Shown here one piece after another: positions 1 through 54,279 of a stretch of 64,000 bases of DNA. This DNA is from an uncultured Bacilli bacterium. GTDB lineage: Bacteria; Bacillota_I; Bacilli_A; RF39; UBA660. Under the pieces are notes generated by a model. That model saw only the letters and a program-made list of their open reading frames with translations. It did not search any database and had not been told where the DNA came from. Both the position numbers and the translations under genes were made by a program. The stretch lies in assembly GCA_947624565.1 (NCBI GenBank), contig CANQKX010000004.1:3273-67272 (forward strand), in the 5' to 3' direction. The number at the start of each line of letters is the position of its first letter. Within the stretch, counting starts at the first letter, position 1.

Positions 1-231
1 TTTTCATCCTTAAATTTGTTACGCTTAATGCAACTAATCGTGTAACTTACTGCTATAATCATATCATTAAATTCATAATGCTGAAGTAGATTTTCGAATA
101 GAGCATCAAATAAGTATAAATCAAATTCATTATCACTTGAAATAAACTTTCTTCTAATAAGTTCTCTTGTAAAAAAGTGATGTGTTTGGGGTGTTTTATC
201 ATTTTTCATAAATTTTCTTGTATCTTGGTTC
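1..231 (-). CDS. Partial hypothetical CDS; the N-terminal part lies in the window and the 3' end runs off the left edge
   Basis: A minus-strand ATG at 231..229 opens a reading frame through position 1 (MNQDTRKFMKNDKTPQTHHFFTRELIRRKF...). It is absent from the ORF track because no stop lies in the window. No family was recognised. Confidence 0.25.
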
Positions 232-331
232 ATTTTTCCATTATCTAAACTCCTAATCTAATACATTTAAACTTAGTAAGATAATAAAAGTCAATAGAGT
301 TATAAGATTATCCTATTAAAAATTAGTTGTA

Positions 332-361
332 AAAAATAGAGCAACCCATGATTCGGTTGCT
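332..361 (-). terminator. Rho-independent terminator after the paralog pair
   Basis: A GC-containing hairpin, agcaacc-catgattc-ggttgct, sits immediately after the stop codon at 362-364. On the minus strand a T-run follows it (ctatttttt). Confidence 0.5.
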
Positions 362-802
362 TTACTCACACATACTTAATATTCTATTTGTCACCGCATC
401 CAGATCTTCTGCTTGAATCATGTTATCCAGCTCTCCAGTTGCACGCAACTCTTCAATCAAAGATATAACTGAATCAAGCATTTCAGGAGGATGCTTAATA
501 CTATCTCCCTGATAAACAATTTTGATGATCTTTTTATAGAATTCTCTATCAGTACTAACAAAACCTCCATCAGTATCACGATTGCATTTAACTAAACATT
601 TTGCATCAAAACTATCAGTTAAATGTGGGGGTTCGTACTCAATAACCAGTTTCCTCAACTTTTCCATAGTTGCTCTCTTCAAAACAAACAACTTCTTCTG
701 CTTGTTGTCAACAACATAACCATCTTGCTTAACAGTTACTGAATACAAACCATTATTTCTTTCTGTAACAAGCATAAGTAACCAATTAATATTGTTCTTC
801 AT
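362..802 (-). CDS. Hypothetical protein; downstream member of a tandem paralog pair of unknown family
   Basis: The 146-aa ORF has a GGGGAG SD 7 nt upstream. Its N-terminal half aligns by eye with the 808..1191 protein (MK..W...; YSVTVKQDGYVVDN vs YTLSVFPDGTIYGN; VLKRATMEKLRKLV vs LLTDDAIAKIQALV). G+C is visibly higher than in the rest of the window. Confidence 0.5.
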   Translation of the reverse strand: MKNNINWLLMLVTERNNGLYSVTVKQDGYVVDNKQKKLFVLKRATMEKLRKLVIEYEPPHLTDSFDAKCLVKCNRDTDGGFVSTDREFYKKIIKIVYQGDSIKHPPEMLDSVISLIEELRATGELDNMIQAEDLDAVTNRILSMCE

Positions 803-807
803 CAGAG

Positions 808-1191
808 TTACTCCCCATAAAAAGTTTCTAAAACTGAAATCAGGTCATCCCTTCCACCGAACGCCTTATCAATATTTGACTCATTAAATATAACACGCAT
901 AACATCTTCAGCATAACGCCAACCTTTAACCTTTAATTCACGCCTTTTGTTACTAATATCCCAAAATTTAACTATTAATCCAGTTGGATCCTGAACATCA
1001 TATCCATAATTCTTAATAATGGATAAATCCTCATGAACTAAGGCTTGAATCTTTGCAATTGCATCATCAGTTAACAGGCAAACCTTATGTCCACACTCAT
1101 TCCCATATATGGTTCCATCAGGAAACACACTAAGCGTGTACTTCGTTCTAGGATTTTGAATCTTAATAAGCCAATGTGTAACAGCTTTCAT
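808..1191 (-). CDS. Hypothetical protein; upstream member of the tandem paralog pair
   Basis: The 127-aa ORF lies 5 nt upstream of its paralog, so the two probably form an operon. No known motif was recognised. Nucleotide composition is atypical for this window. Confidence 0.5.
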   Translation of the reverse strand: MKAVTHWLIKIQNPRTKYTLSVFPDGTIYGNECGHKVCLLTDDAIAKIQALVHEDLSIIKNYGYDVQDPTGLIVKFWDISNKRRELKVKGWRYAEDVMRVIFNESNIDKAFGGRDDLISVLETFYGE

Positions 1192-1442
1192 AACACGTAC
1201 CTTTCTATAATTCTCAAACAGCCATTATTTGACCACTTTCAAGCCCTTTGAGAACCCTTAACCAAGTGGCTAGAACAAATACCCATATAACCAGCAATAT
1301 CGCTCAAATAAGGCATTATTTAGGCTTCTTCTTATTCCAACTACTTAAGTTGGAGACACTAAGGTCTTCCAAATCATCATAAACTATCTCTTCAAATATT
1401 TTTCTAGTTAAAATATCTTAAACTTTGTTTTGGTTCTGTATA

Positions 1443-1628
1443 TTAATTAGTTTCTGTATATAATCTTGCTTCCTCTAATTTCTTATTCTTCTTTAAATTA
1501 AATTGAATCTTTAAAAAATGAATTGAAATTATTAGTAGTATTGGTATTAGAATTGTGAGCATTAGTATTATTGATAATCGTGCGTTTATTGGGGTTGCAC
1601 TTCCTCGCCTCGCCATAAGACATCCCAT
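1443..1628 (-). CDS. Possible small hydrophobic membrane peptide (61 aa)
   Basis: It has a single strongly hydrophobic stretch (LSIILMLTILIPILLIISIHFLKI) with a charged C-terminus. No SD precedes it and the 5' codons are GC-rich. It may be spurious. Confidence 0.2.
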   Translation of the reverse strand: MGCLMARRGSATPINARLSIILMLTILIPILLIISIHFLKIQFNLKKNKKLEEARLYTETN

Positions 1629-2014
1629 ATCGAAGTTGTAATATTCTACGCTGTAAATGTAACAGCTTGCTAAGCTATCATATTAATATATAAAAAATAT
1701 CTAAATTACTAGGAAATTATATGAATTACGTATTTGTAACTTAAATACTTTCATTTCAACTATTGAGGTAGAGAATAAGTTGAAACTATTCATTACATTA
1801 ATTGATAGCTCACACAAGTTGTCATATTACTATACGAAATTAATTAGAGAAATTACAAAAAAGTATCAAAAAATTATTATTTTCATTAATTCTACTATAA
1901 AATCTTCACTAAAAAATACTCAAATCAAAATTTCAAAAACGTTTCTTGGCCCTACTTGGTTATACTTTTGAACAAGCATAAAATATGCTAAAAAGCATTT
2001 TATTAGTTCTGTGT

Positions 2015-2046
2015 GTATTCTCTTATTTAGATTTAAATGTTATAAT
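2015..2046 (+). promoter_or_regulatory. Putative sigma-A promoter with extended -10 for the methyltransferase gene
   Basis: The sequence tgtTATAAT (TG at 2038-2039, TATAAT at 2041-2046) sits ~30 nt upstream of the GGAGG SD at 2066-2070. Confidence 0.4.
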
Positions 2047-2077
2047 ATCCATTGAATTAGGAAATGGAGGAATGCTA

Positions 2078-4264
2078 ATGTCAAAAGACAAAAAAACTGT
2101 AATAAGAAACTTAAATAAAGCATTGAAAGAATTTGATAGTAAAAATAAAGAAAACACATATCAAAACTATATCTTCGTAATCTTATTCTATCGCTACCTA
2201 TCTATCGATATAGTGAAGTATGTAAAAAATAAATACAATAAAAATTACGAAAAATTATCTAACACTGAAGCTGAAGAATTAAAAAATGAAATTATAAGTG
2301 ACAAAGACTATTTCATTTTACCAAGTGAATTATTTCAAAATGTTATTAAAGAAAGACAAGATGATCCTTACTTAGATTCAGTTATAAATAGTATCTTCAA
2401 TAAAATAAGAAAATCGTCTAAATATGATATTTGTGATATATTTAAAAATATTGACGTTGAAGATGAAAAACTAGGGCATAGCAATGAAGAACGAAGTCAG
2501 GCTTTATCCGTAGCATTAAAATCTATTGGCAATATTAAGTACGACTTTGATGATTCTGAATTCGATCTATTTGGGCTTGTCTATGAATTATTACTTAATA
2601 AATATGATGATAATCTAAAAATCAGTTTAGGTAATGGTGTATATTATACTCAAAGTACATTAGTTAAACTACTAATAGAAATTAGCCAATTATATGTATC
2701 TAATCCCAAGAATGTATACGATCCAACATGTGGAAGCGGTTCTTTACTAGTTGAATACTCAAAGTTCAATAATAAAATTTCTTTTTATGGTCAAGAATTA
2801 TTAAGTGTTCCATATGGTTTATGCAAAATGAATATGATCTTACATGGTGTAAAAGACTATCATATTACCAATGCTGATACTTTACTTACCTATAGCAAAA
2901 GCGATAAAGAAAAGTATGAACTAATACTATCTAATCCACCTTTCTCTGTTAGTTGGAATACACCATCCATAAATGATGAACGTTTCAATAATATTCCTGT
3001 CCTTCCACCTAAGAATTACGCTGACTATGCTTTTATTTACCATATACTATATACATTAAACCAAAATGGTGTGGCATTAGTAATTAATGGACCAGCTATG
3101 CTAAGTAGAACATTAAAAGGTAATGATGAAACTTCAATACGTGAACATCTAGTAAAAGAAAATGTAATTGATACTATAATTCAGCTACCAAACAACTTTT
3201 TCCTAAGAACTAGTATTGGAGCATGCTTATTTGTATTAAGAAAGAATAAAGCTGATAAAAATATATTATTTATTGACGCAACATCTATATATACTACTTC
3301 TGGTCATACAAAAACATTCAATGATGCCAATGTAGAAAATATCATTGATATAATAAAACATAGAGAAAATATCGATGATTTATCTTATTTAGCAACACCT
3401 GAAGAAATAGCAGACAACAATTATACCTTCTCCATTGAATCATATATAAATTACAAAAAAAAGAAAACTTTCAAAAAAACAACTACTAATTTATTAACTC
3501 CCAAATTATTACAAGAATTAGAGTATCAAAATGCTAGAAGATATAAATACTTCTTTAATCAACTAAAAGATATGGATGCAAAGCTTCCAGAAATCATTAA
3601 GAAATTAACAAATGATCGTGATATACAAACAGTTAAATTGAGCGATATAGCTGTCTCAATAAAATCAGGAACAAAACTTACACAAATTGGGGCAATTAGT
3701 AATGATGATTTTCCATACTACTATATTACATCAAAGGAAATAGAAAATGGTTCAATTATCCCTATTAGCACTAGAAAAAGTGGTGATGGTAGAGATATAA
3801 AAGGCACCCAAAAGATCAATAAAGAAGCTTTAAAAGAACTATTAAGATTGTCTAACTTGGAAAAAGGCGACATACTCTTTACTCTATCCGAAACTGGTCC
3901 TAAAGTTGCTATAGTAAATAGAACTGACTTTGGTTTCAACCATTCAATCTATATTCTTAAACCAAAAAAAGATAAAATTAATCCTTTGTTCTTAAGATAT
4001 ATGTTGGAATCTGACTATATGAAAAATCAAATATCAAATAAATTATCTCATGCTAATGCAAAGTCTATAAAGATAGAAGAATTCAGAAATTTAACTATAC
4101 CAGATATACCATTAGAATCACAAGAACAAATAGCTTCATTATTAGAAAAATTACAAGGTGAGTATACAATGACTATGGATAGTTATATTTATGAAGAATA
4201 CTTATATAAAGAAATATATAATAATTATAAGAATCAATTTTTTAATGACATAACTAAAAAATAA
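2078..4264 (+). CDS. Type I-like DNA N6-adenine methyltransferase fused to a single HsdS target-recognition domain (M-S fusion, ~729 aa); no restriction subunit is present
   Basis: The tracked ORF begins at 1985, but GGAGG at 2066-2070 is correctly spaced only for the ATG at 2078 (MSKDKK). The N-terminus is HsdM_N-like. Motif I is VYDPTCGSGSLLV and motif IV is LSNPPFS. The methylase ends in an HsdM-like tail (NNYTFSIESYI). About 280 further residues follow with HsdS features (VKLSDIAVSIKSG..., conserved PLESQEQIASLLEKL). Confidence 0.8.
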   Translation: MSKDKKTVIRNLNKALKEFDSKNKENTYQNYIFVILFYRYLSIDIVKYVKNKYNKNYEKLSNTEAEELKNEIISDKDYFILPSELFQNVIKERQDDPYLDSVINSIFNKIRKSSKYDICDIFKNIDVEDEKLGHSNEERSQALSVALKSIGNIKYDFDDSEFDLFGLVYELLLNKYDDNLKISLGNGVYYTQSTLVKLLIEISQLYVSNPKNVYDPTCGSGSLLVEYSKFNNKISFYGQELLSVPYGLCKMNMILHGVKDYHITNADTLLTYSKSDKEKYELILSNPPFSVSWNTPSINDERFNNIPVLPPKNYADYAFIYHILYTLNQNGVALVINGPAMLSRTLKGNDETSIREHLVKENVIDTIIQLPNNFFLRTSIGACLFVLRKNKADKNILFIDATSIYTTSGHTKTFNDANVENIIDIIKHRENIDDLSYLATPEEIADNNYTFSIESYINYKKKKTFKKTTTNLLTPKLLQELEYQNARRYKYFFNQLKDMDAKLPEIIKKLTNDRDIQTVKLSDIAVSIKSGTKLTQIGAISNDDFPYYYITSKEIENGSIIPISTRKSGDGRDIKGTQKINKEALKELLRLSNLEKGDILFTLSETGPKVAIVNRTDFGFNHSIYILKPKKDKINPLFLRYMLESDYMKNQISNKLSHANAKSIKIEEFRNLTIPDIPLESQEQIASLLEKLQGEYTMTMDSYIYEEYLYKEIYNNYKNQFFNDITKK

Positions 4265-4300
4265 AGGAAAGAGAAATAAAAACTCTTTCCTTTGTTTATA
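4263..4300. terminator. Bidirectional rho-independent terminator between the convergent MTase and ParB-like genes
   Basis: The perfect inverted repeat aaaggaaagag-aaataaaaa-ctctttccttt is followed by a T-rich tract. Confidence 0.6.
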
Positions 4301-4330
4301 TTGTTTACAAGATCAATAGGCTTTATTATC

Positions 4331-5182
4331 TTACTTATCTCTATTTCTATATGATTTAATGGCATTGATAATATAATCTTCAATATAACGTTTGTCTCTC
4401 TTAGTTAATTCATATGGTAAAGCCTGCTCTATTCTATCCCTATTAAATGATATTTTATCGTGTTGATTACCTTTCTCCTCAGCTAATATATTCTCTACAA
4501 TATCCGCACTGAGTTGCTTTGACTCACTTAACTTCCTTATTCTTATTGTCTGAGCATGAGAAGGACTTAAATCATCATAAACCATTGTTGAATAGACTAG
4601 CATCTGTTCATCCTTATTTAGGTATGATAGCTCTACAGCAGGCTTTATACCCATAGTAATATTATGCTTATCATTAAATCTAGCTGTATTATCGACTATC
4701 TTTAATAATTCAGGTATTAAATAAGTTAATCTAATGAATCTATATATTTGTGTCTTAGTGTCATTAATACCATTTAAAAGCTTTGTTCCCTTAGGGAACG
4801 AAGTATCTAATTTCTTTCCCTGGTGTTTCATGGCGTCCATTTTCATCTTGTAAGCAAAGGCACGCTCACTAGGCAATAATTTCTCCCTTTGAAGATTAGA
4901 ATCAACCATAAATATAACTGCTTCATCATCCGTTAAATCCTTAACATAGGCATCAACATATTCTTCGCCATTAAGTTCTAAAGCCTTTAATCTTCTATGT
5001 CCAGAAAGCATCTCGTACTTGCTACCTTTTGCTCTAACTACAACAGGATTTAACAAACCATTATCTTTAATACTCTGAGCCAATTCATTTAATAATGCAT
5101 CTACTTCTACAATAAATGGATGATTCTTAAATGGTTCTATATCAACAATTTTAATCTTCTTTAACTCGCTCATCTCTATCAC
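4331..5182 (-). CDS. ParB/Spo0J/Noc-family DNA-binding protein (ParB N-terminal domain plus HTH)
   Basis: The N-terminal ParB/Srx arginine patch is LSGHRRLKALEL. The HTH region ends in LSPSHAQTIR, matching the ParB LSxGHARAL signature. No parA-like ATPase lies adjacent. Confidence 0.7.
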   Translation of the reverse strand: MIEMSELKKIKIVDIEPFKNHPFIVEVDALLNELAQSIKDNGLLNPVVVRAKGSKYEMLSGHRRLKALELNGEEYVDAYVKDLTDDEAVIFMVDSNLQREKLLPSERAFAYKMKMDAMKHQGKKLDTSFPKGTKLLNGINDTKTQIYRFIRLTYLIPELLKIVDNTARFNDKHNITMGIKPAVELSYLNKDEQMLVYSTMVYDDLSPSHAQTIRIRKLSESKQLSADIVENILAEEKGNQHDKISFNRDRIEQALPYELTKRDKRYIEDYIINAIKSYRNRDK

Positions 5183-5666
5183 CTAAAGAATAAGTTATCT
5201 TCCATTCAATGTAATCAGCATATTTTATCTCTCTTCTCTTTCTCTTCTTCCTCATCAAATCCCATTGATTGACAAATGCTCTAATAATATTTAAGAATGC
5301 TTCATCACCAGTAGAAACATCAGATAAATCAAAACGATAATTTGGAAGTAATTCCTCCAACCATAATAAAGTATATATGAGATCAATTGGTTCCTTATAG
5401 TTATATTGCTTAATTGCTTCATAACTAACATTTAACAATTCAGCTATCTTCTTTGTTCTTGATATATTGGGGTTCCTATCTCCCTTCTCATATCTTGTCA
5501 TTGTACGTCTCCTATTATCACCTTTAGCACCTAATAAACCAGCTATTTCATCCTGAGTCTTGGATCTAAACTGTCTAACAAAAGCTATACGAGAGCCTTG
5601 CGATAAATCTCTTAAAATTGGCCTAGAATACATTAATTTCATTAGTAAATACCTCCTATTATTCAT
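5151..5666 (-). CDS. XRE-family helix-turn-helix DNA-binding protein
   Basis: The HTH_XRE-like segment is TQDEIAGLLG...TMTRYEKGDRNPNISRTKKIAELLNVSYEAI. The gene overlaps the downstream ParB-like start by ~30 nt, implying an operon. Confidence 0.5.
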   Translation of the reverse strand: MNNRRYLLMKLMYSRPILRDLSQGSRIAFVRQFRSKTQDEIAGLLGAKGDNRRRTMTRYEKGDRNPNISRTKKIAELLNVSYEAIKQYNYKEPIDLIYTLLWLEELLPNYRFDLSDVSTGDEAFLNIIRAFVNQWDLMRKKRKRREIKYADYIEWKITYSLGDRDERVKED

Positions 5667-5797
5667 CGCAGAATATCATCAAAAAAGACTAAATCAGCGA
5701 ATATATGCGATTATATATTCAGACTTAGTCTACATTTTATTATTAAGCTCAACAAATAATTGGGTATTAACACGATAAACTTAAGTATTATCGGCTA

Positions 5798-8437
5798 TTA
5801 TAAGTTCCTCCCATTTTTGATAGCAGCTTGTGCTGCGGCTAATCTTGCAATTGGAACTCTAAATGGAGAACAAGATACATATGTTAATCCAATATTATGA
5901 CAGAATTCAATAGTTGATGGATCCCCCCCATGTTCACCACAAATTCCTAAATGAATATCAGGTCTTGTTTTTTTACCATTTTCAACTGCCATTTTAACTA
6001 ATTGACCAACACCATTTTGATCAAGTTTAGCAAATGGATCTGACTCATAGATTTTATTTGAATAATAACTATCTAAGAATTTACCTGCATCATCACGAGA
6101 AAAACCGAATGTCATTTGTGTTAAATCATTTGTACCAAATGAGAAGAATTCTGCTGATTTAGCTATATCACCAGCAAGTAATGCTGCCCTTGGTATTTCA
6201 ATCATAGTTCCTATATGATATTTAATATCTGAATTTTTCTCTTTTTTAACTTGCTCTGCAGTTTTTACTACTATATCTTTTACAAAATCTAACTCCTTTT
6301 TTTCACCAACAAGTGGAATCATTATTTCTGGTTCAATTGAAAAACCATCTTCCTCACTTACTTCAATTGCTGCTTCAATTAAAGCTCTTGTTTGCATTTT
6401 AGCAATTTCAGGATAAGTAACTGCTAAACGACATCCTCTATGACCCATCATTGGATTAAATTCATGTAAATAATTAATTTTATCTGTTAATTTTTCTACT
6501 GAAACACCCATATCTTTTGCAAGAGCTTTAATATCTTCTTCATTAGTTGGTAAAAATTCATGTAAAGGTGGATCTAAATAACGAACTGTCATTGGTAATC
6601 CTTTTAACTCTTTATACATTGCTTTAAAATCACCTTTTTGAAATGGAATTAATTCATTTAAAGCACTTTCTCTTTCTTCAACAGTATCAGATAAAATCAT
6701 TTTCCTTATTTTAGGTATTCTTTCTTCATCAAAGAACATGTGTTCTGTACGACATAAACCAATACCTTGTGCACCTAATCTAACTGCATTTGCAGTATCT
6801 CTTGGATTATCAGCATTTGTTCTAACTTGTAATTTTCTAAACTTATCAGCCCATGACATAATTCTACCAAAGTTACCAGATACTGTAGCTTCTTCAGTTT
6901 CAACTTCACCTTTATAAATTTTACCTGTTGAACCATCTAATGAAATATAATCACCTTTTTTGAATGTATATCCTCCAAGAGTAAATTCTTCTTTTTCTTC
7001 ATTTATTTTAATATCACCACATCCTGATACACAACAAGTTCCCATACCACGAGCAACAACTGCAGCATGTGAAGTCATTCCACCACGAACTGTTAATATA
7101 CCTTGTGCAGCAACCATTCCTTCAATATCTTCTGGTGTAGTTTCAAGTCTAACTAATATTACTTTTTCTCCTTTTCCACCAGTACCTAATTTTTTTGCTT
7201 CTTCTGCAGTAAATACTATTTTACCTGTTGCTGCACCTGGAGATGCTGGAAGTGCTGATCCAACTTCTTGTGCCTTACTTAAAATATCTTTATTAAATGT
7301 TGGATGTAATAATTGATCTAATGATTTAGCTTCTATTCTAAGTACTGCTTCTTCTTCAGTAATCATTTTTTCATCAACTAAATCACATGCAATATTAATA
7401 GCGGCTTGAGCTGTTCTTTTACCATTTCTTGTTTGTAAGAAATATAATTTACCTTCTTCAATAGTAAATTCCATATCTTGCATATCACGATAGTGATTTT
7501 CTAGTTTAGTAGCAAGTTTCATAAATTCTTCATAACATTCTGGTAAATCTTCCTTTAATTTAGTTATTGGTTGTGGTGTTCTAACACCTGCAACAACATC
7601 TTCACCTTGTGCATTAATTAAATATTCACCAAATATACCTTTTTCTCCAGTAGATGGATTACGAGTAAATGCAACTCCTGTACCTGATGTATCTCCTTTA
7701 TTACCAAATACCATTGTTTGAACATTAACTGCTGTTCCCCAATCACCTGGAATATCATTCATTCTTCTATAAACGATTGCTCTTGGATTATCCCAAGATC
7801 TAAATACAGCTTTTACTGCACCCATCAATTGTTCTTTAGGATCTTGTGGAAATTCTTCACCATTCATAGTTTCTTTATAAATTTTCTTAAATCTTTCTAC
7901 TAATTCTTTTAAGTCATCAACTGTAAGTTCTGTATCATATTTAATACCTTTATCATTTTTTATTTCATCAATAATTTTTTCAAAATAAGACTTTGGTACT
8001 TCCATAACAACATCTGAATACATTTGAATAAATCTTCTATAAGAATCATATGCAAATCTTTCATTATTTGTTTTTTTTGCAAATCCTACTACTGCTTCAT
8101 CATTTAAACCTAAATTTAATATTGTATCCATCATCCCTGGCATAGATGCCCTTGCTCCTGATCTAACTGAAACAAGTAAAGGATCATTATTATCCCCAAA
8201 TTTCTTACCATTAATTTTTTCTATTTCTTTTAATGCAGTAAATATTTGATCTTGTATTTCGTTAGATATATTCTCCCCATCATTATAATATTCTGTACAA
8301 GCCTCTGTTGTAATAGTAAATCCTTGTGGTATAGGTAAGCCTAAATTAGTCATTTCTGCCAAATTAGCTCCTTTACCTCCAAGTAAATTTCTCATTTCAG
8401 CGTTTCCTTCACTGAATAAATAAACATATTTTTTCAT
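5798..8437 (-). CDS. ppdK: Pyruvate, phosphate dikinase
   Basis: The PEP-utilising His motif is GGMTSHAAVVARGMG. The N-terminus is MKKYVYLFSEGNAEMRNLLGGKGANLAEM. The ORF is full length, so the start was moved to M7 of the tracked ORF. Confidence 0.9.
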   Translation of the reverse strand: MKKYVYLFSEGNAEMRNLLGGKGANLAEMTNLGLPIPQGFTITTEACTEYYNDGENISNEIQDQIFTALKEIEKINGKKFGDNNDPLLVSVRSGARASMPGMMDTILNLGLNDEAVVGFAKKTNNERFAYDSYRRFIQMYSDVVMEVPKSYFEKIIDEIKNDKGIKYDTELTVDDLKELVERFKKIYKETMNGEEFPQDPKEQLMGAVKAVFRSWDNPRAIVYRRMNDIPGDWGTAVNVQTMVFGNKGDTSGTGVAFTRNPSTGEKGIFGEYLINAQGEDVVAGVRTPQPITKLKEDLPECYEEFMKLATKLENHYRDMQDMEFTIEEGKLYFLQTRNGKRTAQAAINIACDLVDEKMITEEEAVLRIEAKSLDQLLHPTFNKDILSKAQEVGSALPASPGAATGKIVFTAEEAKKLGTGGKGEKVILVRLETTPEDIEGMVAAQGILTVRGGMTSHAAVVARGMGTCCVSGCGDIKINEEKEEFTLGGYTFKKGDYISLDGSTGKIYKGEVETEEATVSGNFGRIMSWADKFRKLQVRTNADNPRDTANAVRLGAQGIGLCRTEHMFFDEERIPKIRKMILSDTVEERESALNELIPFQKGDFKAMYKELKGLPMTVRYLDPPLHEFLPTNEEDIKALAKDMGVSVEKLTDKINYLHEFNPMMGHRGCRLAVTYPEIAKMQTRALIEAAIEVSEEDGFSIEPEIMIPLVGEKKELDFVKDIVVKTAEQVKKEKNSDIKYHIGTMIEIPRAALLAGDIAKSAEFFSFGTNDLTQMTFGFSRDDAGKFLDSYYSNKIYESDPFAKLDQNGVGQLVKMAVENGKKTRPDIHLGICGEHGGDPSTIEFCHNIGLTYVSCSPFRVPIARLAAAQAAIKNGRNL

Positions 8438-52662: not shown

Positions 52663-54279
52663 TTAATCAATTATTTGTGAACTATAAAAATAATAATTAC
52701 CCTTATGTTTTTTAAATGTATATTTAACCATAGATAATTTATCATAATATTCTGTTATATCAATATCATCTTTACTATAAGTAGCATGTAATTCTTTTAT
52801 TGGTCTTGTTTCTTGAATGTCTTTATATATTCCAGATGGTTCAAAATTTGTATCACTACCATCACTATAAATTAATCGCGCTACATCTATAAAAGCAAAT
52901 TTTTCATAAATTATAATTTTATCACCATTTATAACATAATCATAATATTTATTTTCTATCCAATTTTCAAGAAGCCCACCACACCCGCCTTCTACAGCTA
53001 TGTATTTTTTTTCTTTTTTATCATATTTATACATATCACATTGAGTAGGCATAAAGTCTTTTTTACTATATTTTATACTATCTCCAAATACCTTTTTCAT
53101 AGCTTTATCTAAACTATTGATATCAATTATTTTAATATTTTCTATGTAACTGCCGTCATCTGATTTTTTTACATCATCAATTATTTCATTTTCTGGTATT
53201 TGATTGAAAGCTAATAACAATTTTTGATTATCACTAATATCATTAATAGTAACCTTTTGATTTTCATAAAAGTACCTTTCTTTTAATAAATCATCGTGAA
53301 CTGCTACCATTTTATATAAATCTTTTATAGTTTCATCACTTTCTTGATAGAAAAAAGTATCAGAATTTAAAGAATAGAGATAATTACCATTATTATATAA
53401 ATCTAATGCTGTTGTTTTTTGAAGTATACTTTTACTTCCATTTTCATCAAGTATTTCATTTAACGTTATTAATACTTTTTGTTTTTCAAGTTTGTAAATT
53501 CCATAAAAAGTTTCATCACTTTCAAAGTTATGTAATGTAATACTCCCATCTTTATAAAATTTCATTTCCGATTCTATACCTTCAAATATTTTATCTTTAT
53601 TTACTTTTAAATAACGACCTGTTGTCTTAATATTATTGTTGACATTTGGTATAAAATATGCAAATATACTAAAATAACTATCATCATCTTCATAAATAAT
53701 CACATCAATAATTTTATCTTTATAGAATACAAATTTCATTTTTTTAGATTGATCTTTTACTCTGTTATTCAAGTCATAATTAACATTTACTAAAGCACTA
53801 TATAAATTATTTTTTATCTTAATCACATCAAATGTATTTTGAACAAGTTCTATCTTTTCAATTTTATTATTTGTAGCAAGACTTTGAATATAAAATTTTA
53901 TTCTATATTCCATTTCTAATTCTGCTTTAGTTTTTTGGTCTTTATCATTATTATGCCAAGTTCCATCTGGCGTTTTATAATTTTCATATATTTTTTCATA
54001 CTCTTTTTCAAAATTGTTAAAATCATTTTCAATTTTTTTTAATGTATATATTCCTTTACTATCTATATTTTTAAAAATTTCATTAGAATTTTGTGAGGCT
54101 GCAAATAAACTAATAAAATTTGTAATTATATTTTTATACGATTCTTTTTTATCTTTCTCTACTTCAAAATTTTCCATTACATTATTAGTATTATTCTTAA
54201 TTTCACTTTTACTTTTAGTACAACCCGATAATATAATTAATAAACAAAGTACACTTATTAATATTACTTTTTTAAACAT
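52663..54279 (-). CDS. Lipoprotein (hypothetical, 538 aa)
   Basis: The signal peptide has the lipobox LSGC (MFKKVILISVLCLLIILSGCTKS). An A/T hairpin terminator follows at ~52585..52612. Confidence 0.6.
   Translation of the reverse strand: MFKKVILISVLCLLIILSGCTKSKSEIKNNTNNVMENFEVEKDKKESYKNIITNFISLFAASQNSNEIFKNIDSKGIYTLKKIENDFNNFEKEYEKIYENYKTPDGTWHNNDKDQKTKAELEMEYRIKFYIQSLATNNKIEKIELVQNTFDVIKIKNNLYSALVNVNYDLNNRVKDQSKKMKFVFYKDKIIDVIIYEDDDSYFSIFAYFIPNVNNNIKTTGRYLKVNKDKIFEGIESEMKFYKDGSITLHNFESDETFYGIYKLEKQKVLITLNEILDENGSKSILQKTTALDLYNNGNYLYSLNSDTFFYQESDETIKDLYKMVAVHDDLLKERYFYENQKVTINDISDNQKLLLAFNQIPENEIIDDVKKSDDGSYIENIKIIDINSLDKAMKKVFGDSIKYSKKDFMPTQCDMYKYDKKEKKYIAVEGGCGGLLENWIENKYYDYVINGDKIIIYEKFAFIDVARLIYSDGSDTNFEPSGIYKDIQETRPIKELHATYSKDDIDITEYYDKLSMVKYTFKKHKGNYYFYSSQIID

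Follow-up and report, generated by a model that had tools for sequence, protein, structure and literature searches.

The stretch of DNA analysed here, which we call the window, comprises 64,000 nucleotides (nt) from an uncultured Bacilli bacterium (RF39; UBA660), taken from contig CANQKX010000004.1 of assembly GCA_947624565.1 (positions 3,273-67,272, forward strand). It holds a gene in which a Type I DNA methyltransferase (MTase) subunit, HsdM, continues within a single polypeptide into half of a specificity subunit, HsdS, with a single target recognition domain (TRD) and a single conserved-region (CR) helix. We refer to this architecture as M-S½. The gene and its signals are laid out as follows, with residues given in amino acids (aa) and model confidence as the predicted local distance difference test score (pLDDT).

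2038..2070, + strand: methylase promoter and ribosome-binding site (RBS), with an extended -10 element TGTTATAAT (2038-2046) and GGAGG (2066-2070)
2078..4264, + strand: complete gene for the HsdM-half-HsdS (M-S½) DNA adenine methyltransferase, 728 aa (domain hits, models, public gene calls)
2117..2512, + strand: HsdM N-terminal helical domain, aa 14-145 (Pfam HsdM_N, 8.7e-7; all-helical in the model)
2561..3466, + strand: gamma-class N6-adenine MTase catalytic domain, aa 162-463 (Pfam N6_Mtase, 7.6e-78)
3416..3499, + strand: low-confidence linker, aa 447-474, holding an A8 and an A7 run and encoding KKKK..KK (pLDDT <50 at aa 461-464)
3500..3616, + strand: helix A, the HsdM C-terminal tail helix, aa 475-513 (DSSP; alignment of stand-alone HsdMs)
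3629..4102, + strand: single HsdS-type TRD, aa 518-675 (PADLOC Specificity_I, model, Foldseek)
4112..4258, + strand: helix B, the HsdS CR helix (PLESQEQIASLLEKL...), aa 679-727 (DSSP; PDB HsdS alignments)
4263..4297, no strand assigned: hairpin and probable bidirectional terminator, AAAGGAAAGAG-N9-CTCTTTCCTTT followed by T-rich sequence

The first part of the protein is an HsdM. It exceeds the cutoff of the NCBIfam hsdM equivalog TIGR00497 (309.1 bits versus 242.75, aa 28-463), and its best solved sequence relative is the HsdM of the Type IC enzyme EcoR124 (7bst_D, 3.9e-70, aa 28-463). Motif I (DPTCGSGSLL; nt 2720-2749, aa 215-224) and motif IV (NPPF; nt 2933-2944, aa 286-289) stand in the gamma-class order, and both are invariant in an alignment across 15 relatives. 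An AlphaFold model of the full-length protein (mean pLDDT 83.9) comprises a helical N-domain (1-206), a Rossmann core (207-446), the linker (447-474), helix A (475-513), the mixed alpha/beta TRD (518-675) and helix B (679-727), and Foldseek matches it to the HsdM chain 3lkd_A at 1.1e-32. In alignment and model, the helix at 475-513 corresponds to the tail with which a Type I HsdM joins the coiled coil of HsdS. An earlier note on this DNA had read an HsdM_N-like N-terminus and full gamma-class N6-adenine MTase motifs in this part of the chain, and both are confirmed by these matches.

Apart from Pfam's own Methylase_S model, which falls below threshold, the comparisons made identify the remainder of the chain as half an HsdS. 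About ten PADLOC Specificity_I models match aa 517-693 (E 1e-13 to 1e-16), the PDB HsdS chains 1yf2, 5ybb_D, 3okg and 2y7c_A are matched both by sequence and by profile, and a genuine 418-aa PF01420 HsdS (P0121) matches the C-terminal part at 2.3e-22. A separate AlphaFold model of this part (pLDDT 87.8, predicted template-modelling score (pTM) 0.81) finds the S subunit of PacII first (7vs4_C, 2.4e-11), then 1yf2 (3.4e-10), then the S subunits of EcoKI, BsaXI and EcoR124I; HsdS matches range from 2e-11 to 4e-6, versus 7e-3 to 0.06 for M.TaqI, BpuSI and BrxX.

We located the joint between the two parts from the ends of their relatives. Alignments of stand-alone HsdMs of 500-530 aa to the family profile end at positions ~500-517, and helix A is therefore the HsdM tail helix; the PADLOC HsdS models begin, at model position 5-6, at aa 517-518. 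These alignments place the M/S joint at aa ~513-517 (nt ~3615-3630). Hidden Markov models, PDB hits and the two structure models agree on an end-to-start fusion, in which a whole HsdM is followed by the first TRD and central conserved helix of an HsdS. The single chain of HsdM and half-HsdS with one TRD that had been proposed for this gene is thus upheld, with a C-terminal part of ~215 aa made up of the TRD and a long helix. A search with the C-terminal 264 aa alone returned just three HsdS proteins and, oddly, not the protein's own family, so that it says little on prevalence. Esub1 (PDB 8vsq/8vsr, ~200 aa, co-crystallised with Prx) matches the TRD and CR helix as well as full HsdS does, and appears to be a free-standing half-HsdS-like protein.

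The gene runs from ATG 2078 to a stop at 4262-4264 and is contained in a listed open reading frame (ORF) at 1985-4264. The same 728-aa product has been called independently on 13 public contigs with an identical start. GGAGG lies 7 nt before the ATG, and it and TGTTATAAT are both invariant in the window and in the related loci L011, L014 and L007. Both signals fall inside the 1985-2077 extension of the ORF, which is itself unconserved, and in four other lineages an in-frame stop lies 5-21 codons upstream of the methylase, without an alternative start. Together, these comparisons indicate that 2078 is the correct start. They also speak against translation of the upstream codons, a question raised earlier for an extension put at ~90 codons; it measures 31. 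At the other end of the gene, the terminator hairpin has an 11-bp stem (AAAGGAAAGAG / CTCTTTCCTTT) and a 9-nt loop, lies between the convergent methylase and ParB-like genes, and is nearly identical in L011. A promoter and terminator scan, in which sites were no more numerous than in shuffled sequence, missed this hairpin because its loop exceeds the scan's size limit. Rfam in E-value mode returned nothing for window positions 1-6000, the sole hit being a sub-threshold patAB leader (E 0.61) at the same hairpin.

The genes around the methylase are the following.

362..802 and 808..1191, - strand: two small genes (146 aa and 127 aa), divergent from the methylase and paralogous by alignment
4331..5182, - strand: ParB/Noc-family protein, 280-283 aa, of the same cassette (Pfam ParB_N, 1.3e-15; NCBIfam parB_part, 74 bits versus a cutoff of 58)
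5151..5666, - strand: Xre-type helix-turn-helix (HTH) protein, 158-171 aa, of the same cassette (Pfam HTH_19, 2.7e-9)
5798..5840, no strand assigned: right junction of the element, overlapping the 3' end of ppdK (identity to L011 decays from ~5825)

Downstream of the methylase and convergent with it lie the ParB-like and HTH genes, followed by ppdK. Between the window and L011, the ParB-like gene is 99% identical, the HTH gene 98% and the M part of the methylase 96-99% (98% over aa 1-446), whereas the adjacent ppdK is 67% identical. Near-identity extends across the intergenic DNA, takes in the final codons of ppdK and then decays from ~5825. Given this contrast between a cassette at 96-99% and ppdK at 67%, with a break near 5825, we take positions 1 to ~5830 to be the right arm of an element; the position of the junction in the last ppdK codons points to site-specific integration at the ppdK 3' end and to recent transfer between species. 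By these sequence comparisons the methylase is cargo of a mobile element that has integrated at the 3' end of ppdK, and it occupies the right end of that element. The order MTase-ParB-HTH-ppdK recurs in L014, L105 and L106 with methylases 48-67% identical, and some relatives adjoin large serine recombinases and HTH/M78-peptidase (ImmR/ImmA-like) pairs. The ParB and HTH genes are absent from the P0010 and P0016 lineages. A 278-aa ORF downstream of the methylase in L017, considered as a diverged ParB, was set aside for lack of similarity.

We then looked for a restriction subunit. No HsdR-type helicase domain was found in the ten other scanned ORFs of at least 450 aa in the window (a 538-aa ORF at 52663-54279 lay outside the scan); these include PolA, PheT, PolC, an ABC-F protein, FTHFS and a topoisomerase, ppdK having been identified separately. 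No hsdR lies in a further 5.6 kb upstream, read on a 99.7%-identical contig, or in 5.6-10 kb upstream in L002, L011 and L014, or in L017, L097 and L105. Overall, hsdR is absent from eight of the nine related contexts examined. In L007, the sole ResIII-type gene near a relative of the methylase is paired with its own N6_N4 methylase. A Type I HsdM has hsdS and hsdR in one locus; here half an hsdS is fused to the gene and no hsdR occurs in the scanned ORFs or flanks, so that the statement that no R subunit accompanies the gene in cis stands for the ORFs and upstream flanks covered. A transferred cassette with no partner nuclease found is what characterises an orphan methylase on a mobile element.

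How unusual is such a protein? The window family comprises ~16 clusters of 705-751 aa with 41-100% identity, one of which occurs in a GTDB species representative (an uncultured Bacilli metagenome-assembled genome). A scan of genome contigs returned one full-length relative (L017) among 80 loci, the others being ordinary HsdMs; it used peptide words specific to the window protein, P0001, and for that reason underestimates other fusions. Collections of phages and plasmids held no close relative, the best matches being ordinary hsdM genes or adjacent hsdM and hsdS pairs at no more than 36% identity. An exhaustive profile search was more productive: about a third of the best 150 cluster representatives exceed 650 aa, and five of ten representatives sampled (P0150, P0152, P0158, P0162, P0238) carry HsdM_N, N6_Mtase and one Methylase_S domain above cutoff, with the Methylase_S match of another, P0174, falling just below the Pfam cutoff. 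The several unrelated proteins in the protein library that combine HsdM with a single Methylase_S are 685-793 aa long. Two of the unrelated M-S½ proteins, P0150 and P0162, also lack hsdR, and in one case the surrounding element carries a serine recombinase and DUF932. In alignment and model the window protein follows the single-chain M-S½ plan: an M domain and its tail helix, then a single TRD and a single CR helix.

The plan has also been solved. Foldseek matches the full-length model to 7eew_A, the 638-aa chain of a "minimal intact MTase" titled "intact MTase from Vibrio vulnificus YJ016 with Ocr", which is matched by the family profile on the M part and separately by the C-terminal model; one solved natural chain therefore carries both parts. 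In 2022, in Int J Biol Macromol, Seo et al. reportedly described 7EEW as an M domain with a tail helix and an S½ domain that dimerises through a four-helix bundle. Like the window protein, 7EEW is a natural single polypeptide with an HsdM catalytic domain, tail helix, one TRD and one CR helix. It is nevertheless distant, with a profile E of 2.4e-13 on the M part only and 14-15% identity in structural alignments, and the two are probably independent fusions. The window protein is also longer (728 versus 638 aa), with a longer N-terminal HsdM_N domain, and its gene lies on a mobile element without hsdR in cis, whereas the description of 7EEW assigns it to a Type I restriction-modification (R-M) system.

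An engineered equivalent exists as well. M½Sfus, made from the Staphylococcus aureus CC398-1 system, fuses HsdM to half an HsdS in the same domain order; it is soluble and active, dimerises, methylates a palindromic bipartite target and restricts when HsdR is supplied (Bower et al., 2018; PMC6158711). It is an artificial protein with a complete R-M-S system as its source; the window gene, by contrast, belongs to a natural, conserved family (15+ members, 41-100% identity) without evident HsdR. Half-size S subunits are known as separate chains too. M.AhdI is an M2S2, Type I-like methylase of a Type II system (PMC2878638), and a truncated, single-TRD lactococcal HsdS, S.Lcr033I-TRD1, yields TTAANNNNNTTAA (PMC12418389). 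In these, as in EcoR124I-NT and EcoDXXI, half-size S subunits pair through their conserved helices and assemble with two M subunits, and M.AhdI and the truncated HsdS proteins read symmetric split sites such as GACN5GTC or TTAAN5TTAA. They differ from the window protein in having M and S on separate polypeptides, within systems that have a cognate nuclease. The M-S½ architecture, being already solved (7EEW), engineered (M½Sfus) and found in several unrelated fusions, is known and opens no new mechanism.

These precedents suggest how the enzyme would work. Two chains would associate through a four-helix bundle of two tail helices and two CR helices, rebuilding the M2S1 arrangement found in Type I methylases. 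Each of the two identical TRDs would then read one half of a symmetric, bipartite palindromic sequence, and each catalytic domain would flip and methylate one adenine, one per strand, with S-adenosylmethionine. That one TRD per chain implies a dimer on a symmetric site, as the earlier note had it, is supported by analogy with direct precedent in M½Sfus, M.AhdI, the truncated lactococcal HsdS and 7EEW. The methylase is real and, judging from its alignments and models, intact and probably active.

We favour, with moderate confidence, the reading that this is a self-contained Type I-derived N6-methyladenine (m6A) MTase that acts as a homodimer on a symmetric split site and serves as the orphan methylase of a mobile element. 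With no nuclease found, an orphan methylase of the element is the simplest role. Such an enzyme would mark both element and host DNA. Its most plausible function would be to protect the element from restriction systems of matching specificity upon entry into new hosts; alternatively, it may supply an element-linked epigenetic mark. That mobile elements carry orphan MTases as protection against host restriction is documented (PMC11541004), and the window gene would add a Type I-derived representative to them. It is also a counterpart from nature, conserved in its family and moving horizontally, of the M½Sfus intermediate, which Bower et al. engineered in support of the view that simple fusions and truncations connect Type I, IIB/IIG and II systems (PMC6158711). 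A compact, single-gene enzyme of this kind, expected by analogy to write a long symmetric m6A motif, should be quick to characterise.

Several points weigh against this reading. Pfam PF01420 (Methylase_S) has no match at E<=0.01 on the 728-aa protein, although several other M-S½ proteins do match it. With Pfam below threshold, the TRD assignment rests on the PADLOC, PDB, PF01420-HsdS and Foldseek evidence, all of which identify the C-terminus as HsdS in the domain check that the earlier note had called for; the window TRD is a divergent member of the HsdS type. The dimer, the target site and the m6A activity are predicted from monomer models and from precedent. Protection on entry is a putative role, for an element that may be conjugative, phage-like or of another type. 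The window covers 64 kb alone, and an hsdR may lie elsewhere in the genome, with M½Sfus as an example of a fusion that restricts once HsdR is present. Finally, in L106/L107 a complete Type IC hsdM-hsdS-hsdR operon lies ~2.4-5.4 kb from the methylase on the same element.

That operon bears on the best surviving alternative, according to which the gene encodes the modification and specificity core of a true Type I system whose HsdR is encoded elsewhere in the genome or element, the dimer recruiting HsdR to restrict unmethylated DNA. M½Sfus combined with HsdR does restrict phage, with an efficiency of plating of ~0.1 (PMC6158711), the title of the 7EEW paper presents its protein as a member of a Type I R-M system, the L106 locus supplies a Type IC hsdR (EcoR124_C domain) on the same element, and Type IC HsdM is the closest match to the M part. 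The L106 operon was nevertheless rejected as the cognate system. It has its own hsdM and hsdS, its HsdS is only marginally similar, and its HsdM is just 36% identical to the fusion's M part, which is no closer than unrelated HsdMs and a distance at which members of different Type I families, as these are established, would not be expected to complement each other. The likeness to Type IC HsdM (EcoR124I/II, 7BST) lies in the motifs, the HsdM_N domain and the tail helix; the Type IC protein is ~520 aa long and works with two further subunits, an HsdS that has two TRDs and the HsdR motor, whereas the window protein has its own single TRD, and Pfam HsdM_N similarity is weak throughout the window family. 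The ~60 kb downstream of the gene, in its scanned ORFs of at least 450 aa, and the examined flanks of L002, L011, L014, L017, L097 and L105 contain no hsdR, and the ResIII gene of L007 is committed to its own methylase. We regard a partner HsdR in trans as unlikely.

A second alternative is a monomeric enzyme, comparable to M.TaqI or to the methylase and TRD portion of Type IIG and Type ISP enzymes, that modifies one strand of a short asymmetric site and uses the two long helices only as an intramolecular scaffold. One MTase and one TRD suffice in MmeI-type and Type ISP enzymes (PMC2582602, PMC6158711), the C-terminal model reaches its pTM of 0.81 as a monomer, and M.TaqI, BpuSI and BrxX are among its weaker Foldseek matches. 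Yet helices A and B are homologues of the HsdM tail and the HsdS conserved region, respectively, two elements that serve to form the intermolecular four-helix bundle in Type I methylases; the best structural matches are HsdS proteins (1e-11 to 1e-6) rather than M.TaqI or Type IIG (7e-3 to 0.06); and the characterised half-HsdS cases all dimerise (PMC2878638, PMC6158711, PMC12418389). A monomeric mode is accordingly improbable.

The related proposal that this is a Type IIG-like enzyme that lost its nuclease fares no better. Type IIG and ISP enzymes (MmeI, BpuSI, LlaGI) do resemble it in that one chain carries a gamma-class MTase and, after it, a single HsdS-like TRD. They begin, however, with a PD-(D/E)xK nuclease, to which ISP enzymes add a motor, and they recognise asymmetric sites and modify one strand, whereas the window protein begins with HsdM_N, contains no MmeI-type or nuclease domain anywhere in its 728 aa, and matches BpuSI much more weakly in structure (Foldseek against the full-length model, template-modelling score 0.38). 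Its TIGR00497 score exceeds the hsdM cutoff and stand-alone HsdMs align with it up to the end of the tail helix; the chain is therefore an end-to-start fusion of HsdM and HsdS, and we discard the lost-nuclease origin.

A third alternative makes the gene the methylase of an unrecognised defence or anti-defence module together with the 127-aa and 146-aa proteins and possibly the ParB-like protein. The two small paralogues, which have 23 relatives among 5.8 billion proteins and no Pfam, PHROG or PADLOC match, lie directly upstream of the M-S½ methylase, in divergent orientation, in five lineages whose MTases are 41-100% identical; the intergenic DNA between them and the methylase is conserved, and in five lineages the MTase has ParB-like and HTH genes alongside it. 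Against a module, the small genes occur without the methylase in L099/L100, where the DNA is 89% identical, L097 has a Type II R-M system inserted between them, the P0010 and P0016 lineages do without ParB and HTH, and none of the neighbours yielded a nuclease or any other effector domain. The small genes are, from these comparisons, backbone of the element family, and a shared backbone accounts for their lying beside the methylase; a dedicated module is a long shot.

There remains the suggestion that the A8 and A7 homopolymers sit at the M/TRD junction and could uncouple specificity by slippage. The tracts do exist (A8 at 3455-3462, A7 at 3473-3479); they lie in the linker that leads from the catalytic domain to the tail helix (codons 460-467), ~50 codons upstream of the M/S joint. 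They are no more frequent than expected, with four runs of A>=7 in the gene versus a mean of 3.1 in synonymous shuffles and one of A>=8 versus 0.78, and the window as a whole contains 25 A/T runs of at least 8. The closest allele, P0002 (86% identical), lacks the tracts and reads YINYEMKTAF there, while six assemblies (L001-L006) carry them unchanged, in a look-up by exact protein that is biased towards intact copies and against variants. A slip of ±1 would produce a stop at aa 470-472, before the tail helix, and would thus kill the enzyme rather than uncouple its specificity. A phase-variable methylase switched by these tracts, which such truncation would in principle allow, is hardly credible for a chance-frequency repeat that is not conserved, shows one length in six assemblies and, at A8, is short for efficient slippage.

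A comparison of the two closest alleles brought up something unexpected. P0001 and the L011 allele, P0002, are 99% identical in HsdM_N, 96% in the MTase core and 90-91% in the TRD, versus 50% in the linker, 33% in helix A and 24% in helix B. The corresponding DNA patches, at ~3408-3625 and ~4113-4258 (6370-6600 and 7078-7225 in L011), have sharp boundaries and are ~45-50% identical in nucleotides inside versus 85-100% outside. No other pair in the family shows this pattern; elsewhere the helices diverge in step, and both are long in all 15 relatives. P0002 is further extended by 6 residues through a T-to-C change at the stop codon. The linker with the tail helix and the CR helix have been replaced together in the P0001/P0002 lineage, a concerted exchange that fits an interaction between helices A and B. 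A diversity-generating retroelement was rejected as the cause of both patches, since the substitutions are of all kinds rather than adenine-specific and no reverse transcriptase lies nearby; a frameshift of common DNA was likewise rejected, direct alignment showing different DNA.

Such an exchange might mean that the dimerisation bundle is a swappable specificity or compatibility module in this lineage, an idea we put forward as doubtful. Were it true, an exchange that altered the spacing or register of the TRDs would change the length of the target spacer, and one that blocked heterodimers would keep co-resident alleles independent. Either would amount to a natural diversification of a Type I-like methylase that leaves the TRD untouched, on an element that moves between species.

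In sister elements, the region beyond the two small genes is a hotspot for varied R-M cargo. It holds a Type III-like mod with ResIII in L007 (442-4250), a SwaI-like restriction endonuclease (REase) with a TaqI_C methylase in L017 (6445-9154), a C5 methylase with a Bsp6I-like REase in L097 (7467-10319) and the complete Type IC hsdMSR operon in L106 (167-6159). In the window lineage (L002), HEPN and response-regulator genes occupy this place.

The ~880 nt that separate the methylase from the divergent small genes (1192-2077) are free of genes and conserved in blocks, even in L007, whose methylase is 45% identical; this stretch has no Rfam match and no conserved coding potential. A GC-rich island (~1590-1625) stands out there from AT-rich surroundings, and the stretch also has a palindrome (1980-2003) directly upstream of the methylase promoter and a repeated motif.

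1672-1695 and 1816-1839, + strand: two direct copies of the conserved motif RTCATATTAMTATA(CGAAAT), with palindromic core ATATTAATAT

No third copy above chance occurs at the ppdK junction. Homology to the MTase-less sister element L099/L100 ends at 1696, directly after the first copy. Of the metagenome contigs, L004/L005 begin at 1786, whereas L006 begins at 1811; on our assumption that the assemblies were made with k=55 and k=31, both starts place an assembly-graph branch at ~1841, right after the second copy. The motifs are possibly recombination joints, or operator sites for the ParB and HTH proteins.

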